Assembly (NCBI GenBank): GCA_943787795.1
Contig: CALSNU010000001.1
Span: 544,001-608,000 of the forward strand
Direction of reading: 5' to 3'
From: an uncultured bacterium
GTDB lineage: Bacteria > Planctomycetota > UBA1135 > GCA-002686595
DNA: 64,000 nucleotides
Part shown: positions 29,685-36,512 of the stretch, in pieces
Layout of the letters: each line of letters begins with the position of its first letter
Position numbering within the stretch: position 1 is the first letter of the stretch
Notes under the pieces: generated by a model
Databases searched by the model: none
The model's input: the letters and a program-made list of their open reading frames with translations, nothing else
What the model was told of the DNA's origin: nothing
Position numbers and translations under genes: made by a program

Positions 29685-30902
29685 TTACTGGAAGGTGATC
29701 CCGATCGAGCTGGAGAAGTTCGAGGAGGCCGCGCCACCGGGGGCGGCGTCCCTGTGCCAGAACTGCCAGTTCTGCCGGTCACCGGGCACGAGCACGGTCG
29801 AGCCGCCGCCTGCCACGGGGATCGACGCGAGGTCCGGCTGGAAGAAGACGGACCCCAGCCCGGCGTTGAGCACCTGCGTTGAGTAACGGCCTGCGGCGCC
29901 GAGGCAGAGGTTGCCGAGGGAGCCGCCGGGGTTGGCGGCGAAGCCGGTGGCGGGGGAGGTGATGAAGTAGCCCAGGGAGTTGAGCGGGAGGTCGACGACG
30001 TAGAGCCTGACGTCGTTGTCGATGGCGATCGGGCTGCCAGAGGCGCACAGCGTCGCGGGGCTCCCGGAGCTGTTCACGGCGCCGGCGCATCCCTGCTCCC
30101 CGAGCAACGGGAAGAGGTTGACGTCTCCGAAGCAGGCCGTGAGCGCGTAGGCGCTGAAGCCCTCACCGTTCTTCAGGAACACACGGATGACGACCGCCTC
30201 GGCTGCGGAGGGGTTGGTGGTGTTGACGTACATCACGGACTCGTTGTCCGTGGTCGAGCTTGAGCTGGCGAGGACGTTGCCGGTGCAGGTCCCGCCCTGG
30301 AACTCGAGGATCTCGACGTCGATGTCTCCGAGCGAATGGTCGAAGAGCAGGTCGACCTGGATCTGCACGTCGGCCCGCTGCAGTCGCGCGACGAAGTAGT
30401 CCTCATCGCAGCCCGTGACGACGAGGTTCGGAGTCGTGAAGTCCGTGATCGCGATGAGGGATCCGCTCTGGCAGTCATCGTTGTCCTCGAACGGGTCATC
30501 CACGACCTCGACCAGGTCAATGTTCAGCTCGTAGGGCGCAGCGTTCGCGGCGAGGTCCTCCACGAGGACGACCATCTGCCTGGGAGCGCCGCCGCAGTCG
30601 AAGTAGTCCAGGGGCTGTCCGGAGGCCGTAGCGAGGGGAGCGCCGCACCCGAGCTCGAAGAGCGTCAGCGTGGGGGTCGCCGCGGATGAGATGGCCTCGA
30701 TCTGGATGGAGGCGTTGGCCGGGACGTCAAAGGCGAAGTAGTCGGGGTCGGGTCCCAGGGTCAGGTTCGGCGTCGTCCCCGGGAGGACGAGCGGCGGAGC
30801 GGCGCAATCGTCATTGGGCTCGAAAGCGTCCTGTGGGAGGCACAAGGAGACTGACTGGAGGGCGATGGCAACCGTGGCAGCGGCGCAGACTCTGTGAAAC
30901 AT
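29685..30902 (-). CDS. Secreted protein with two PPC-like/Ca-binding beta domains and a conserved C-terminal domain
   Basis: Signal peptide; repeated 'D.FE.NDDC' and 'D.DYF' motifs; C-terminal 'C....NSSG...LCLG...QFWHRD...SNFS'. Confidence 0.75.
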   Translation of the reverse strand: MFHRVCAAATVAIALQSVSLCLPQDAFEPNDDCAAPPLVLPGTTPNLTLGPDPDYFAFDVPANASIQIEAISSAATPTLTLFELGCGAPLATASGQPLDYFDCGGAPRQMVVLVEDLAANAAPYELNIDLVEVVDDPFEDNDDCQSGSLIAITDFTTPNLVVTGCDEDYFVARLQRADVQIQVDLLFDHSLGDIDVEILEFQGGTCTGNVLASSSSTTDNESVMYVNTTNPSAAEAVVIRVFLKNGEGFSAYALTACFGDVNLFPLLGEQGCAGAVNSSGSPATLCASGSPIAIDNDVRLYVVDLPLNSLGYFITSPATGFAANPGGSLGNLCLGAAGRYSTQVLNAGLGSVFFQPDLASIPVAGGGSTVLVPGDRQNWQFWHRDAAPGGAASSNFSSSIGITFQ

Positions 30903-31106
30903 GAACTCGGAGTGTGGTGGGGGGAGCGGCATGCTCCGAAGGTGAACTCGCCGAAGGCTAGTCGGGTATTGGACTCGGTGCGGCGGATTGGGCCAGAGGC
31001 TTGTGCCGGGGTGCAAGAATGAGATGGGAGAGGCCCAAATCGGGCAGGATGAGGGCTCATTTGAGGGTGGAGACGCCCCCCTGCGGACTAGGATGGGTCC
31101 AGATTC

Positions 31107-31673
31107 ATGGTCCATCTCAGCCGCATTTACACCAAGTCAGGCGACACCGGTACGACCCAGCTGGGCGACGGATCCACCCTCCCCAAGCACCACCTGAGGG
31201 TCTCGGCTTACGGGAACATCGATGAGCTGAACAGCGTCATCGGGATGATGCTGGTACGCGACGTCGAGGGTCCCACGGCGACCCGACTCCGCCAGGTCCA
31301 GAACGACCTCTTCGACGTGGGCTCCGACCTCTGTGTTCCAGGGGAAGCGGGCGAAAAGCTCCGGATCACGGCGTCCTACGCCGAGCGACTGGAGGCGTGG
31401 ATCGATGAGGTGAACAAGCGGTTGACGCCGATTGACTCCTTCGTGCTTCCCGGCGGCTCCTCCGCAGCGGCATGGCTCCATATGGCCCGTACGGTCTGCC
31501 GGCGCACGGAGCGCTCGATCGTCGAACTCTTCGCCCGCGAAGAGGGCGGGCGCGTGAACGGGGAGGTCCTGAAGTACGTGAACCGGCTCTCGGACCTCTT
31601 CTTCGTCCTCGCGAGAGAGGCCAACGACGGCGGGAAGAGCGACGTGCTCTGGGTGCCAGGTCAGAACGGCTGA
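31107..31673 (+). CDS. pduO: ATP:cob(I)alamin adenosyltransferase (PduO type)
   Basis: 'IYTKSGD.G.T','AYG.IDELNS','FVLPGG','RTVCRR.ER','Y.NRLSD..F..AR'. Confidence 0.93.
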   Translation: MVHLSRIYTKSGDTGTTQLGDGSTLPKHHLRVSAYGNIDELNSVIGMMLVRDVEGPTATRLRQVQNDLFDVGSDLCVPGEAGEKLRITASYAERLEAWIDEVNKRLTPIDSFVLPGGSSAAAWLHMARTVCRRTERSIVELFAREEGGRVNGEVLKYVNRLSDLFFVLAREANDGGKSDVLWVPGQNG

Positions 31674-31722
31674 GCGTCCCGATTCGGGATCGCGACACCT
31701 CGAAGACGGCACCGACATTCTG

Positions 31723-32340
31723 ATGGGCTTTCCGCTGGACCATGCAACGCCGACGGCCTGGGTCTCCCTCGTCGAGCGAGAGCCCGAGAGGCTCCTTGAA
31801 GATCACGCCCACTGCGAGTTGAAGGCGGCCTCATCGGCCCACGCGCTGATCGCCAAGAACCCTGAACACAGCGAGCTGGTCCAGGACCTCGCTGATATCG
31901 CGATCGAGGAGCTGGAGCACTTCAAGGTCGTGGTGTCCGAGCTCGAGGCCCGCGGCGGCCGCCTCGGAGAGCAGACGGAGAACCGGTACGCGGCCTCGTT
32001 GCATCGCCGCTCTGCCGAGAGCCGGCAGAGCCTGGTGCTGGATCGGCTCGTGATCGCCCACCTGATCGAGGCCCGCAGCCTGGAGCGCTTCCACCTCCTC
32101 GCGGAGCACTCCACGGACTCGCGACTCCGGGAGCTCTTTGCCGAGCTCCTCCCCTCGGAGGCCGCGCACCAGGGCTTCTATGCCAAGGCCGCGCGGAGCC
32201 TCTTCGGCCGAGAGCAGGCGGAGGCGCGCATCGCCCACCTGCGGCGGGTCGAGGGGGAGGTCATCTCGACGCTCCCGTTCTCTTACACGGTGCATTCGGG
32301 AATGGTCGGCGCGCCGAGTCTGTCGCCAGCGGAGCGATGA
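31723..32340 (+). CDS. miaE: tRNA-(ms2io6A) hydroxylase MiaE
   Basis: 'L.DHAHCELKAA','EELEHF','IEARS.ERF','SEA.H', C-terminal 'VHS'. Confidence 0.9.
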   Translation: MGFPLDHATPTAWVSLVEREPERLLEDHAHCELKAASSAHALIAKNPEHSELVQDLADIAIEELEHFKVVVSELEARGGRLGEQTENRYAASLHRRSAESRQSLVLDRLVIAHLIEARSLERFHLLAEHSTDSRLRELFAELLPSEAAHQGFYAKAARSLFGREQAEARIAHLRRVEGEVISTLPFSYTVHSGMVGAPSLSPAER

Positions 32341-32618
32341 GCGGGTCCCCATCGGAGGCGCGCCTCGTCCTCCTCGAGGGGCGGGTGCAGGGCGTGGGCT
32401 TTCGCTGGCATGCCCGGTTGGAGGCGCGGGCGCTGCAGGTCGCCGGGTGGGTGCGGAACCTCGAGGACGGAGGGGTTGAGGCGCATTGTGAGGGGGACCC
32501 GGATCGGGTCGAAGAGCTCCTCGGTTGGCTCGAGATGGGGCCCGCTGGGGCCAGGGTCGACCGGGTCGATGTTCGTCGCGCCGAGGTCGAGGGCCATGGC
32601 GGGTTCGAGATCCGATGA
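32337..32618 (+). CDS. acyP: Acylphosphatase
   Basis: 'GRVQGVGFR','GWVRN..DG.VE','GP..ARV'. Confidence 0.93.
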   Translation: MSGSPSEARLVLLEGRVQGVGFRWHARLEARALQVAGWVRNLEDGGVEAHCEGDPDRVEELLGWLEMGPAGARVDRVDVRRAEVEGHGGFEIR

Positions 32619-32678
32619 TCGGGCGACGAGCAAGCTCTGGCCGTGACCTGGGGCAGCGCCGGGCCTAGGCTTCTCTGC

Positions 32679-34340
32679 ATGGCTCTTCACGTCGCTTGGC
32701 TGCTGCTCGCCGGGCTCCTGCTGCCGCAGGAGGTCGCTCCGGCACGCCCCGAGGACCTCACCCCGGCGAGCTGGAACACCGAGGGCGAGCTCCTCCCCGC
32801 GGTCGAGCTGCCCCGGATCGACGGCCGAGGGACAGTCAACCTCGGCGAGCTCCGCGGCCGCAAGCTCCTCTTGATCCACTTCGCCTCCTGGTGAGCAGGG
32901 TGCCGGAGGGACGTGCCGGTCTGGTACGAGAGAGTGCGGCCCTTGGTCGAGGCCGGCGCGCTGCAGATCATCGGCATCGTCCAGGAACAGCATCCGGATC
33001 GTGCGCAGCTCTATCAGCAGTGGAAGGGGCTGGACTTCCCGATCCTCTGGGATCCGTTTGGCCTCTCGGGCGTGGAGGCGGTGCCGGACCTGACCGCCGT
33101 CGACGAGCACGGGGTCATCCGCATCGCCCGGCCAGCCCCTAAGCTGTTCGAGACGCAGTTCATGGAGGGCTTCATGGGCAGGAGCTTCGAGGCGAGTGAA
33201 GGGGAGCCTGTGCCAGCGACCTTCTTCCAGGTGAACGCGTCGGCGCGCCTGCGGGGGGACCTCTCGACGGAGGATCGGGCGCGGAGAGCGATGGCCCGCC
33301 TGATGCTGGCGGGGCCAACGGCCCGCACGATCGACGGCGAGGTCGATGCGCTGGCGTCGGCGGCGGTCGAGGGGCAGCCTCGCGATCGGTTCCGCGCGGG
33401 GGTCGGCCTGCGGATGCGGTTCGACGGGCCGCAGGCGCGTGCCGCAGACCTCCAGCGCTCCATCGACGCCTGGTTCTCTGCGCTCATGGCCTCGCCGAAC
33501 CAGTACATCTGGCGGCGCCGGATTCAGCAGTGGGGCCCAGCGCTGGACAAGCCCTACGCCTTCTACGACTGGGTGGGCGTCGCCCGGGCGGACATCCAAG
33601 CCCGCGGTGAGCGTCCCGTGCGGCTCCTCGCTTCGCTCTCAGGTGCCGAGCGAGCCCAGAGCTCGCGGGCGGTCCCGGTGCTGCGCAGTGGGGCCGTGGA
33701 GCCCGACCCCGAGGACCGGATCACCCTGGACTCCGGGAGGCTCGTGCGCCTCGAGCATGCGGTGGCCTTGAATACCGCGGTGGTGGGACCGCGGATCCGC
33801 GTCCCTCGGGGATCGCTCCGGCTTCACGTGGTCCTTCGGCCGCGTCAGGGGGCCACCTGGCCGGTGGACGCGGACCCGCCGGTGCTCTGGTTGGAGCCGG
33901 GCGAGGGATGGCTGCTGGCCAGCTCGCTCGTCCCCTTTCAGGCCCCAGGCGTCGGTGGAGAGGGACGCCCCCTGATCGCGGACCTGGAACTCTCGACCCC
34001 GCTGAGGATGCTGGCGCCGCCGGACCCCAGCGCCCCACCCCCCGCGGCGACGGCGACGCTCCGCGGCTATGTGCTCTATTCCGTCTGCGAGGCGGACGGA
34101 ACCTGCGTCTTCCGGCGACAGGAGCTGGAGGCGGTCGTCCGCTTCCCCGATCCGCGGCGCGGAGATTCACCTGCGGACGAGGCCCAGGGGGACGAGGCCC
34201 ACGGGGATGAGGCCCAGCGGGGCGAGACGCAGCGGGGCGAGGCGCAGCGGGACGAGACGCAGCGGGGCGAGACGCAGCCGGACAAGGCGCAGGCGGACGG
34301 GGGTGATGGGGAGAGCCAGAAGGGGGGCGCGGATCGGTGA
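32679..34340 (+). CDS. Selenoprotein: secreted TlpA/redoxin (UxxC) + helical domain + DsbD-N-like C-terminal domain; TGA 32892-32894 read as Sec
   Basis: ORFs 32643-32894 and 32913-34340 are in frame and joined by TGA GCA GGG TGC: 'LRGRKLLLIHFASW-U-AGC-RRDVPVW', matching the TlpA 'F.A.WCxxC' motif; SECIS-like hairpin downstream. Confidence 0.88.
32912..32928 (+). promoter_or_regulatory. Putative bacterial SECIS element
   Basis: Stem CGTGCC/GGTACG (one G-U pair), loop GGTCT, with 23 nt between the UGA and the loop. Confidence 0.8.
34176..34295 (+). repeat. 15-bp coding tandem repeat, 8 units (DEAQG/GETQR)
   Basis: gacgaggcccagggg ... ggcgagacgcagcgg units at the selenoprotein C-terminus. Confidence 0.85.
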
Positions 34341-35350
34341 CGATGAGCGGGCCCCGAAGGACGCTTCTCCTGATCGCGATGGCCATGGGCGCCTGCGCTG
34401 GGCCGAGCTCTGATCCGGCGCACCGGGTCCGCGGGCCGATCGCCGCGCGGATCCTCCAGCCCGCTGCGCTGATCTTTCCGTCGCCGCGCCCGGCGCGGGC
34501 GAGCCTCCCGTCGAGCGGAGACGGGCGTGCGCTCATCGACCTTCAGTACTCGTCCATCTTCGAACAGAACGCGAGCGCTGCTGGCGCCGCGAACTTCGAT
34601 GGTGAGGTCGGGCGTCTGGCAGCCAACATTCTCCTCGGCTTCGGTGAGGGCGTCGCTCTGGGTCTGGAGCCCTCCCTCTTGTTTGCCTCCAGCGGCTTCC
34701 TTGACGCGACGGTGGACGCGTTCCACCAGCTGACAGGCCTCCCTGGAGGAGGTCGGGAGAACGCTCCTCGGGACCAATACGGGATGTCGCTGGAGCGGGG
34801 TGGCGTCACCGCGTGGTCCCTCGAGGAGGACGAGCTCCTCCTCGGCGATCTTCCGCTCACGGCGATGATGACCGTGATCGACGAGGGACCGGGCCAGCCC
34901 GGTATCGCGGCGCGCTTCACCGTGGAGTTACCCACCGGGAGCGAGTCCCGCGGCTCGGGGAGCGGCGGCTGGGATACCGCGGCGGGGGTGGTGCTCGAGA
35001 AGTCCTCAGGCCGCTGGACGTTCACAGGCCACCTCGACGGTGTCCGGGTGGACACGCCGCGCGGGTTCCTCGACGCCGGGCTCGACGTGGACTACCTCCT
35101 CTTCGCGGGCACCGGTGTCGAGTACCGGTGGTCCGACGAGACCTCGCTGCTCCTCCAGCTCCAGTACCGCTCCCCGTTGACCACTGACCTTCCCCTCGAG
35201 GAGATCGATCGCGAGATCATGGACGTTGGCGTGGGCGTGGCCCACGACCTGAGCCGTGAGAGCGCGCTCACGATCTCGTTCCATGAGGACGCGGTCGCGG
35301 CCTCGGGCCCCGACTTCACCCTGTACTTCGGCCTCACGTTCGGCTTCTAG
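34337..35350 (+). CDS. Outer-membrane beta-barrel lipoprotein, DUF3187-like
   Basis: Lipobox-like 'MGAC'; 'GFLD..VD.FH...GLP.G.R', 'LPTG', C-terminal 'PDFTLYFGLTFGF'; GTGA overlap with the selenoprotein gene. Confidence 0.7.
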   Translation: MTMSGPRRTLLLIAMAMGACAGPSSDPAHRVRGPIAARILQPAALIFPSPRPARASLPSSGDGRALIDLQYSSIFEQNASAAGAANFDGEVGRLAANILLGFGEGVALGLEPSLLFASSGFLDATVDAFHQLTGLPGGGRENAPRDQYGMSLERGGVTAWSLEEDELLLGDLPLTAMMTVIDEGPGQPGIAARFTVELPTGSESRGSGSGGWDTAAGVVLEKSSGRWTFTGHLDGVRVDTPRGFLDAGLDVDYLLFAGTGVEYRWSDETSLLLQLQYRSPLTTDLPLEEIDREIMDVGVGVAHDLSRESALTISFHEDAVAASGPDFTLYFGLTFGF

Positions 35351-35363
35351 CCGGACGGGGGCT

Positions 35364-36512
35364 TCAGTCCGCGATCAGCTCCGCCACGGCCTCGGCGTGG
35401 CGGGCGCCGTCCTCTTCACCGACCTCCATGAGGCACCGAATGTAGTCACCCTGGAAGAGGATCGTCGAGAGGAGCTCCTGGGACCTCGCGCGGCGGGTAC
35501 CCCAGCGCCTCGTGAGGAATCGGAAGGTGCCCGGGAGCCTTGGCTCGAATTCGTTCGCGAGGCTCGCGATATCCCTCGAGGGCCGGATCACGAGGCACTT
35601 GATGGGCCGCAGGTGCGAACGTTGCTCAGGCGGGAGCTTCTCGACCAGGCCGTTGATGCGCTCGAGGTGCATGGCGTCCTGATCGAGCACGTCGAGGAAC
35701 GTGGCGCTCATCAGGTTGCCCAGGATCTGCGCGGCGCGCGGCGGCCCCTTGAAGCGCGGCTCGCGCGCCTCTGCCTGGGAGGGGCGAAAGCGCGTGGAGA
35801 TGGCCAAGACCCGGTCCGCGCCGAGGTGGACCGCGGGGGCGAGGGGCGCGGTGAGGCGGACGCCTCCGTCGCCGTACCACTCTCCGTCGACCTCCACGGG
35901 CGCAAAGAAGAGGGGGAGGGCCGCCGAGGCGAGGATGTGGTTGACCCGGAGGTTGGTCCGGACGCTGTGGCGCAGGGGCCGCTCCCAGTTCCTGAATTCT
36001 CTGCCGGCGGTGAACGAGACCGTCTGCCCGGTGGAGTAACGAAGGGCGATCAGGGCGATCGCCTTGAGCCTGCCGGAGTCGAGATTGGCCTGGATCCCGG
36101 GCAGCCCCTGTCCCCCGAAGGACCTCTCCAGGAAGCGACGGAGCGGCGTGCTGTCGACCATCCCGTCCAGGGGTTGGAGCGTGGGCGCCCAGCCGGTGGC
36201 GAGCCGCATGCCGATACAGGCGGCTCGATGGAGGAGCGCGAGCCCGCGCGTCTCGAAGACCGAGTTCACGTCAATGCCGCGCCACAGGGCCTGGAGGTGC
36301 TCGGCGGCCTCCTCGAAGGTGGCCTCGCTGTTGCCGAGGTGCGCCGCGTTGATCGCCCCGGCGGAGATGCCGGTCAGGATCGAGGGGGCGAGATCCGGGT
36401 GCGCCCTCGCGAGCCCGCGCAGCACCCCGACCTGGTACGCGGCCCTCGCGCCGCCGCCGAAGAGGGTCAGGGCGAGCCCGTGCTGCGGCACATCTTGGCT
36501 GGGGCTGGACAT
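35364..36512 (-). CDS. Patatin-like phospholipase
   Basis: 'GGGARAAYQ.G', 'GISAG', 'DGG'. Confidence 0.9.
   Translation of the reverse strand: MSSPSQDVPQHGLALTLFGGGARAAYQVGVLRGLARAHPDLAPSILTGISAGAINAAHLGNSEATFEEAAEHLQALWRGIDVNSVFETRGLALLHRAACIGMRLATGWAPTLQPLDGMVDSTPLRRFLERSFGGQGLPGIQANLDSGRLKAIALIALRYSTGQTVSFTAGREFRNWERPLRHSVRTNLRVNHILASAALPLFFAPVEVDGEWYGDGGVRLTAPLAPAVHLGADRVLAISTRFRPSQAEAREPRFKGPPRAAQILGNLMSATFLDVLDQDAMHLERINGLVEKLPPEQRSHLRPIKCLVIRPSRDIASLANEFEPRLPGTFRFLTRRWGTRRARSQELLSTILFQGDYIRCLMEVGEEDGARHAEAVAELIAD

Follow-up and report, generated by a model that had tools for sequence, protein, structure and literature searches.

A predicted exported selenoprotein that joins a UxxC thioredoxin domain, TPR-like helices, and a probable DsbD-N-like domain in an uncultured planctomycete

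INTRODUCTION

Thioredoxin-fold selenoproteins of several kinds have been described or predicted in bacteria, and their closest counterpart here is a gene at positions 32679 to 34340 (+ strand) of a 64,000-nucleotide stretch of DNA (the window; positions 544,001 to 608,000 of contig CALSNU010000001.1, assembly GCA_943787795.1) from an uncultured bacterium of the Planctomycetota. The gene is almost certainly translated through an in-frame TGA as selenocysteine (Sec, U), and its predicted product joins a thioredoxin domain, a helical domain resembling tetratricopeptide repeats (TPR), and an immunoglobulin (Ig)-like domain with a cysteine pair. Its nearest kin are the UGC-TlpA selenoproteins (ResA-like, WAxxUGC; NCBIfam NF041054), whose model came first among the NCBIfam matches for 19/19 members of the family. 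The query matched this model with 49.7 bits, the cut-off being 300, over profile positions 84 to 201 of 354, and no NCBIfam model covers the protein. The motif of NF041054 is U-G-C; in the present family it is longer by one residue (U-x-x-C in 159/159 loci), and the third, Ig-like domain with its Cys pair is absent from the UGC-TlpA relatives. In two NF041054-like loci (L302 and L303, both under that cut-off), the family profile matches the thioredoxin domain (43 and 70 bits, respectively) and, weakly, the helical part of L303 (11 bits); both have a TPR-like tail and no Ig domain. Their motif is ASW/GSW-U-GCR-x-x-(V/L)P(V/G)W, and both have the RNA hairpin of the present gene, placed 3 nucleotides (nt) closer to the UGA.

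The predicted UxxC redoxin, Prx-like, and thiol-disulfide isomerase-like selenoproteins (PF08534, PF00578, and cd02966) of PMC13188914 share with this family the thioredoxin fold and Sec at the first position of CxxC. Those entries are defined by a single domain, and the present family is set apart from them by description rather than by representative sequences. In that source, none of the 119 rows of Table 1 names a fusion of TPR-like and DsbD-N-like domains, and neither passages of the Haft and Gwadz preprint, BSepDB, and the GOS paper nor a term search of deep-Sep gave any mention of the family. The GOS sequence supplement (PMC2398784) held no match to EQHP or IWRRR. In one of its reads, a W-U-PYC redoxin runs on into a tail that looks DsbD-N-like by eye, and fusions of a Sec-redoxin and DsbD's N-terminal domain (nDsbD) may thus not be unique to the three-domain family. 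Databases may already contain members of the family under generic names.

The nearest design is that of SOQ1 from Arabidopsis and human NHLRC2, which also combine a thioredoxin-like domain, a repeat scaffold, and an nDsbD-like domain with a Cys pair in its last hairpin (10.1101/2021.03.16.435614). The modeled N-terminal domain of the query matches the folds of these proteins (7djk, Z of 10.3; 6gc1, Z of 9.4), and its C-terminal domain matches 7djl (Z of 7.6). However, SOQ1 and NHLRC2 contain an NHL beta-propeller and a CCINC motif, whereas TPR-like helices and U-A-G-C are found here. They appear to be analogues, without sign of common ancestry of the whole protein. A sequence-only reading of the window had presented the architecture as one not known from a characterized selenoprotein; this stands for the three-domain build, of which we found no description in the literature searched, and does not extend to its parts, because the first two domains and the hairpin have a precedent in UGC-TlpA and the thioredoxin with an nDsbD-like domain has one in SOQ1 and NHLRC2.

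RESULTS

Read-through of the in-frame TGA codon

The features of the gene are as follows:
32679..34340, + strand: whole gene, 553 amino acids (aa) including Sec72, terminating at TGA 34338-34340
32679..32744, + strand: probable signal peptide, about residues 1-22
32766..33194, + strand: TlpA/ResA/CcmG-type thioredoxin domain, about residues 30-172
32892..32894, + strand: in-frame TGA (Sec72), first position of U-A-G-C, with Cys75 at 32901-32903
32912..32928, + strand: hairpin of the selenocysteine insertion sequence (SECIS) type
33267..33602, + strand: TPR-like helical domain, about residues 197-308, with Tyr276 (33504-33506) and Tyr293 (33555-33557)
33693..34160, + strand: Ig-like, probably DsbD-N-related domain, residues 339-494, with Cys470 (34086-34088) and Cys476 (34104-34106)
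34161..34337, + strand: variable low-complexity tail

Two open reading frames (ORFs), 32679(32643)-32894 and 32913-34340, share one frame, and between them lie only the TGA at 32892-32894 and 18 nt (six codons). Reading the TGA as U gives 553 aa with the segment HFASW-U-AGC-RRDVPVW, in which the codon takes the attacking position of a TlpA-type W-U-x-x-C motif, the place of the catalytic Cys in homologous folds. The product further contains the helical-region motif NQYIWRRRIQQWGPALDKPYAFYDW and YSVCEADGTC (C470-x5-C476), and all of these elements are present in the translation as the sequence-only reading had described them.

Homologous loci were retrieved by patterns that do not span the TGA site and comprised the best 80 of 431 one-genome-per-species loci and the best 80 of at least 499 metagenome loci; for database proteins, the best 150 of 420 representatives (E ≤ 1e-30) were covered. 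A TGA with a Cys three codons later was found in 159 of the 160 loci; the region is missing from the other one, and every one of the 159 readable loci thus has it. W-TGA-x-x-C was present in 80/80 loci of the first set and 79/80 of the second, although the sets partly overlap and do not amount to 159 independent events. The codon is always TGA, never TAA or TAG, and without an indel, across at least six phyla. The same arrangement occurs in all 30 best loci of the query genome and its relatives, and U is present in every one of 23 further genomes from an even sample of the phylum. The changes in the six codons between the TGA and GTG 32913 are mostly at third positions, and TGY is kept at the Cys75 codon in 80/80 loci; the spacer is therefore translated.

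The sequence-only reading had asked whether homologues carry Cys opposite the TGA. Only one database protein does (P0132), with Ser at the +3 position. True Cys orthologues, with CxxC and the C-terminal pair, numbered 0 among 258 database proteins and 0 among the 159 loci, although distant versions are possible and one search pattern for the one-genome-per-species stretches required Cys. A weak search with the N-terminal region found none among 83 candidates.

The SECIS-type hairpin has a 6-bp stem and a 5-nt loop (GGUCU) that begins 24 nt past the UGA (23-nt spacer), and the G at loop position 2 is invariant. In the covariation analysis, 99.2% of 474 cells were paired, with 10 two-sided changes; none of 500 shuffles was as high, and slid controls gave 17 to 45%. 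The folding energy was −9.5 kcal/mol for the consensus, −7.2 kcal/mol for the query stem alone, and −22.1 kcal/mol with the lower stem. The bSECIS model of PMC13188914 requires a loop of 3 to 9 nt, a stem of 4 to 16 bp, a G in the first two loop positions, a distance of 16 to 37 nt from the UGA, and at most −7.5 kcal/mol. The hairpin fits this model in loop, stem, GG, and spacer, and its energy is borderline, the stem alone falling just short of the limit. Two observations weigh against giving the hairpin its full value as evidence: it is, taken singly, not more stable than shuffles (z of −1.05 to −2.08), and amino-acid constraint accounts for part of its conservation.

All four components of the selenium machinery that had been proposed for a search were detected in the genome: selA, selB, and selD over their curated cut-offs, and tRNA-Sec with 69 bits against a gathering score of 47. 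The selD gene has an in-frame TGA of its own. Of 60 relatives, 58 also exceed the selA cut-off, and the genomes of the other two are 78% and 83% complete. The family gene adjoins selB in 6 of 79 loci, and selA is there as well in 5 of them; a scan of 10 such loci detected tRNA-Sec in 3.

A sequencing or assembly error, the remaining concern of the sequence-only reading about this codon, is ruled out: two DNA runs produced by other studies (X4 and X5) have contigs with the same TGA and no differing letter, and the RNA-library contig X17, which stops 11 nt past the codon, carries the identical TGA, again with no differing letter. The RNA-library contigs overlap parts of the gene and may derive from DNA. 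An alternative code with UGA as Trp or Gly was considered and rejected, since the gene has 13 TGG codons and codon 72 is its sole internal TGA; it is also contradicted by the presence of tRNA-Trp(CCA) and tRNA-Sec in the genome and by the use of TGA to terminate this gene and its neighbors. With TGA in every readable locus, a covarying hairpin, and the complete set of selA, selB, selD, and tRNA-Sec, the proposed read-through is borne out, and we regard the insertion of Sec at TGA 32892, as judged from genomic sequence, as close to certain.

Export and domain composition

The N terminus is hydrophobic in the query (11-residue Kyte-Doolittle maximum of 2.66) and in 72 of 76 homologues, compared with 3 of 76 control windows, and the mature query has no hydrophobic window of 19 residues (maximum of 0.93). 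The protein is thus probably exported to the periplasm as a single chain, in agreement with the signal peptide assigned earlier. The N-terminal domain exceeds the Pfam cut-offs for AhpC-TSA (31.9 bits) and Redoxin (30.1 bits), and its best folds are 3gl3 (Z of 12.3; root mean square deviation [rmsd] of 2.0 over 132 residues), ResA (2f9s; Z of 11.8), and CcmG (1kng; Z of 11.2), which confirms its TlpA/redoxin identity. Val135-Pro136 stands at the cis-Pro position, the cis geometry being taken from the fold, and P136 is kept in 148 of 153 Sec members.

The AlphaFold2 model of residues 30-496, with Cys in place of Sec, had a mean predicted local distance difference test (pLDDT) score of 94.5 and a predicted template modeling score of 0.93. 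Its middle domain is all helical, as the sequence-only reading had expected. Pfam TPR_2 matches at E ≤ 0.05 in 14 of 31 members, the query not among them, and among the Atlas neighbors of the family, TPR families occur in about 10% of members. The Ig-like domain (pLDDT of 92.2) holds C470 and C476 at the tip of its last beta-hairpin. This pair is present in 154 of 155 loci whose long open frame reaches it, a count that excludes three metagenome loci with early stops (L166, L185, and L213) and one cut locus (L137). The C-x5-C spacing reported earlier is true of the query but not of the family as a whole: the spacing is x6 in 129 of the 154 loci, x5 in 24, and x7 in 1. The tail consists of 15-bp tandem repeats (34145-34339) encoding pentapeptides of the GDEA(Q/H)/GETQR type, with a GETHR hit; homologues have other low-complexity tails or none, and even close relatives have different repeats.

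Probable relationship of the C-terminal domain to DsbD-N

The C-terminal domain (C-domain) was aligned by hhalign with a profile of 30 DsbD_N domains from the phylum, which itself recovers the ScsB and DsbD structures. The match reached 93.6% (score of 46.8) over 130 columns with both Cys in register, whereas 40 block-shuffled controls scored at most 19.5 and the reversed control scored 14.6. [quoted passage not shown] The C-domain differs in lying under the family cut-off, in the C-x6-C spacing of most members, in having Trp where DsbD_N has the Tyr of the H-x-Y strand, and in being fused to a soluble thioredoxin instead of a membrane domain.

By fold, the SOQ1 C-terminal domain (7djl; rank 4, Z of 7.6, rmsd of 3.3 over 106 residues), ScsB-alpha (6c29; Z of 6.8), and DsbD-alpha (1jpe; Z of 6.5) came below unrelated Ig domains, which reached Z of up to 8.3. 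If free of gaps, the end portions of these fold alignments would place C476 on SOQ1 C1012 and DsbD C109 (numbering from 10.1101/2021.03.16.435614). Foldseek gave nothing at E ≤ 0.001 for the domain, with 6dps at rank 14; sequence searches of it against solved structures returned nothing useful, and an Atlas search offered DsbD_N as a lead only (0.80), with low recognition.

Three results speak against kinship with DsbD-N. With the Cys masked, the match falls to 73.9% (34.7), near the 68.4% of the NEW3 control (31.8, 82 columns). The domain scores 11.8 bits against a gathering cut-off of 25 for Pfam DsbD_N, the best member reaching an E value of 0.015. DsbD_N is found at E ≤ 1 in 4 of 65 members, compared with 7 of 65 for the NEW3 Ig domain. 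The likeness claimed by the sequence-only reading is nevertheless upheld by the profile comparison, whereas the fold search alone does not separate the domain from other Ig domains, and we consider it quite probable that the C-domain is related to DsbD-N.

Elsewhere in the genome, the exported product of L133:1414-3057 (contig C6) has a DsbD_N-like domain (24.3 bits with read-through), and its frame runs through SGYI-U-IC into a further 300 aa matching no Pfam family; it is possibly a second fusion of Sec with a DsbD-N-like domain.

Residues lost together with Sec

Among the 258 database family proteins, 249 begin after the TGA, which agrees with the expectation that standard annotation splits the gene, and 9 have a whole N terminus. 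In these 9, position 72 is Ser or Asp in 8 and the remaining one has Cys72 with Ser75; none has the C-terminal pair. Together with two proteins from relatives (L045 and L046), they gave 11 Sec-less paralogues for comparison with 153 Sec members. Among the 54 columns whose conservation in Sec members is 95% or higher, just six (U72, G74, Y276, Y293, C470, and C476) are kept in at most a quarter of the paralogues. Y276 and Y293 are present in 153/153 Sec members and 0/11 paralogues. Where the paralogues have a C-domain, the intact pair and C476 are each found in 0/10, although D351 and W404 are each retained in 10/10. E103-Q104-H105 and R108, which follow the strand beside the active site, are invariant in Sec members; the paralogues keep E103 in 11/11 and H105 in 8/11, so that E103 is not lost along with Sec. 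In a quick tree of 79 rows, the paralogue label needs at least three changes.

In the even sample of the phylum, the pair is kept in 18 Sec copies, missing in 4 (L276, L290, L291, and L296), and cut off in 1. The four pair-less copies, out of 22 with a complete C-domain, retain U, C75, and both Tyr. A second copy in G085 (L299) has an apparently damaged 5′ end and was not counted.

The proteins L044, L045, and L046 (from G011, G025, and G020, respectively) and P0127, P0132, P0158, P0168, P0176, P0187, P0197, and P0243 look redox dead: the domains are kept, and Sec, both Tyr, and the Cys pair are gone. G011 and G025 also carry a Sec copy. These paralogues are possibly binding proteins or partner subunits.

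Couplings between the domains were calculated with the paralogues left out. N274-T349 then ranked 3rd and E133-S272 15th of all pairs, and T349-R479 was also coupled. Of these pairs, E133-S272 joins the 272-282 segment to the cis-Pro loop of the thioredoxin domain, and N274-T349 and T349-R479 join it to the linker next to the Cys hairpin. In a complex model that took in the helical and Ig domains, without the Sec domain, the two packed together with a score of 0.70 (best control, 0.00), at least 85% agreement between runs, and a partner pLDDT of at least 78. Of 157 solved pairs, 116 passed the mark used, as did 2 of 215 mismatched ones, and it tends to be reached by two halves of the same protein. 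The Cys hairpin, Y276, and Y293 lie outside the confidently placed interface residues, which according to the tool is evidence neither way.

Distribution and annotation

There were 431 matching stretches in the one-genome-per-species data, the gene was found in 24 of 201 sampled genomes of the phylum, and family records come from at least six phyla. The named close homologues are Planctomycetota, and the runs holding the stretch are marine. A cultured carrier is Saltatorellus ferox Poly30 (L063). Databases store the members cut short, as "hypothetical" or "tetratricopeptide repeat" proteins. As Cys versions are nearly absent, a search built on Sec/Cys pairs would be prone to overlook the family. 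The gene is also carried by L066 (titled Paracoccaceae) and L115 (titled Alcaligenaceae). L066 clusters with Saltatorellus (support of 97) and shares its gene order, and it is likely mis-binned or mis-titled.

DISCUSSION

The family adds a large missing group to the bacterial selenoproteome and offers a soluble single-chain model for electron transfer between thioredoxin and nDsbD-like domains, the arrangement of SOQ1 and human NHLRC2. It does not, as far as shown, amount to a new kind of chemistry. The pattern of joint loss points to residues that can be tested. We suggest that Sec72, together with Tyr276 and Tyr293 from the helical domain, likely forms the catalytic core, with the 272-282 segment packing on the thioredoxin cis-Pro loop. 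Sec72 would reduce an oxidized periplasmic substrate, for which a protein disulfide, a sulfenic acid, or a sulfoxide is a candidate, and would then form a selenenylsulfide with Cys75. The fused DsbD-N-like domain would re-reduce U72-C75 via C476/C470, in the same chain or in a neighboring subunit, and the C470/C476 pair could in turn be recharged by the membrane DsbD/ScsB-type protein of the genome. The third domain would be an accessory, replaceable by the cell's own nDsbD. A core of Sec and the two tyrosines with an accessory C-domain is suggested because the Sec-less paralogues lose both Tyr and the pair, while 4 of 22 Sec copies lose only the pair. For the DsbD-N-like domain, the function of a built-in recharger is the more likely one; for the whole route from C470/C476 through U72/C75 to the substrate, we put the chances as evenly balanced.

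PMC6210582 describes nDsbD as a reductant of periplasmic thioredoxin-like domains. C476, lost in all 10 paralogues, is in register with DsbD C109, which bonds to thioredoxin partners (10.1101/2021.03.16.435614), and the genome encodes a DsbD_TM protein with N-terminal DsbD_N-type domains. The tyrosines recall the Tyr82/Tyr134 pair of MsrA, an analogy that we offer as a lead only. Some results count against a relay in this direction. In SOQ1, the one tested fusion of this type in the literature covered, the electrons run the opposite way, from the thioredoxin to the C-terminal domain (10.1101/2024.11.01.621559). There is no strong direct coevolving pair between the thioredoxin and Ig domains (best z of 4.4, rank 136). 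The paralogue set is small (11), with several members on long branches and a placement taken from the quick tree only. The couplings Y276-C476 and Y293-C476, which we had considered as contact evidence, were rejected, since they were gone once the paralogues were removed.

The DsbD/ScsB-type gene of the genome (contig C2; L134:1054-3348, − strand) has a frame that continues through a TGA. Its product has two N-terminal Ig domains with C-x4-C, one of which exceeds the cut-off of Pfam DsbD_N, and its C-terminal thioredoxin holds Sec (GHT-U-VVC). Gene callers would end the gene at the TGA.

The alternative that survives best is a route like that of SOQ1, in which membrane DsbD would reduce U72/C75, the thioredoxin domain would pass the electrons to C470/C476, this pair would be the working end on a substrate such as methionine sulfoxide, and the helices would be a scaffold. 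The thioredoxin domain of SOQ1 reduces its nDsbD-like C-terminal domain in vitro, and its lumenal domains have methionine sulfoxide reductase activity (10.1101/2024.11.01.621559); TlpA-type domains are normal nDsbD substrates (PMC6210582), and the SOQ1 C-terminal domain stands high (rank 4) among the folds of the C-domain. That the pair is never kept without Sec (0/10) is also expected if Sec feeds the pair. However, a catalytic pair would not be expected to be missing from the four Sec copies that keep U, C75, Y276, and Y293, nor would the UGC-type relatives be expected to lack the whole C-domain, and the scaffold is helical here instead of an NHL propeller. We therefore hold this direction to be unlikely, though a serious competitor to recharging by the C-domain.

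Slightly less probable still is that there is no relay at all. C470-C476 would then be a disulfide with a structural role, or a site of its own, in an Ig-like binding domain of generic type, and DsbD would reduce the Sec domain directly. Exported beta-hairpins frequently hold structural disulfides. The best folds of the C-domain are unrelated Ig domains, the profile lead over NEW3 shrinks on Cys masking, thioredoxin-to-Ig coevolution lacks a strong pair, and 4 of 22 Sec copies do without the cysteines. A purely structural pair, however, does not explain why it was lost with Sec in 10/10 paralogues, in at least two to three lineages, while D351 and W404 were kept, and the whole domain aligns with DsbD_N with both Cys in register.

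The Sec domain might also act on a small molecule, a peroxide or halogenated compound as in glutathione peroxidases and deiodinases, instead of protein thiols. The invariant E103-Q104-H105 and R108 beside the active site resemble the E-x-H motif of deiodinases, the NCBIfam model deiodinase_rel weakly matches 3 of 19 members (best E of 1.7e-4), and in a Phycisphaerales locus (L092) the family gene follows an FGSYT-U-PPF gene that is deiodinase-like by eye. The retention of E103 and, mostly, of H105 in the Sec-less paralogues shows that these residues are not tied to Sec, and both the spacing of the motif and the best-matching folds are of the TlpA kind, which leaves this possibility a distinctly improbable one. 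Finally, it is hardly credible that the TGA is an assembly error, that the gene is a pseudogene, or that translation truly stops there to yield one polypeptide of 71 aa and, from GTG 32913, another of 475 aa. Database calls agree with a stop, as does a GGAGGG just ahead of GTG 32913, but this sequence lies with its end 2 nt away from the start codon and lacks conservation, the thioredoxin fold would be severed at its nucleophile, and the invariable TGA, the spacer conserved at the amino-acid level, the covarying hairpin, and the identical codon in independent runs all contradict these readings.

Beyond the recharging by the C-domain that we prefer, a wider picture can be drawn as a speculation that we think unlikely. 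The protein might be a selenium-near-obligate, self-recharging periplasmic repair enzyme whose active site, of a new type, uses Sec and two Tyr from TPR-like helices to reduce sulfoxides or similar oxidized groups. Such an enzyme would match SOQ1/NHLRC2 by convergence, on the bacterial side, and would belong to an electron network in the periplasm of marine Planctomycetota, with selenium in DsbD itself and in many TlpA-like partners.

Neighboring genes and other selenium loci

The genes around the family gene are as follows:
31107-31673: PduO-type cobalamin adenosyltransferase (label by eye), in the upstream run
31723-32340: miaE, upstream of the gene
32337-32618: acylphosphatase, upstream of the gene
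34337..35350, + strand: DUF3187 beta-barrel gene (Pfam DUF3187, 86.9 bits), downstream neighbor

No promoter- or terminator-like site was found within 30900-35500. The translational coupling to the beta-barrel gene put forward by the sequence-only reading found no support outside Planctomycetota. The 4-nt overlap exists only if the barrel gene starts at GTG 34337, and there is an in-frame ATG at 34343. The barrel gene lies beside the family gene in at least 16 of 79 loci (ORFs overlapping the gene having been filtered out), all of them Planctomycetota loci, and it was seen in none of the listed loci of other phyla. The link is probably a local, lineage-specific gene order and not a functional one.

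An uncurated codon-usage scan of the genome, with labels given by eye, suggests a large selenoproteome. TlpA-like W/R-U-x-P-C motifs were found at C1+189924, C1+753692, C2-496831, C4+789560, and C6+69376 (contig, strand, and position), other UxxC motifs at C6+70103, C7+99960, and C8+38656, and a CxxU motif at C4-327374. An FdhA-like protein is located at C4-645494, and two TGA codons occur in one frame at C4-265626 and C4-265386. The Phycisphaerales locus named above (L092:87-7353) is a selenium island with selB, selA, tRNA-Sec, the FGSYT-U-PPF gene, the family gene, and an AhpC-TSA gene. The product of this last gene is exported and contains HW-U-PFC; by eye, its N-terminal part is like the C-domain minus the cysteines.

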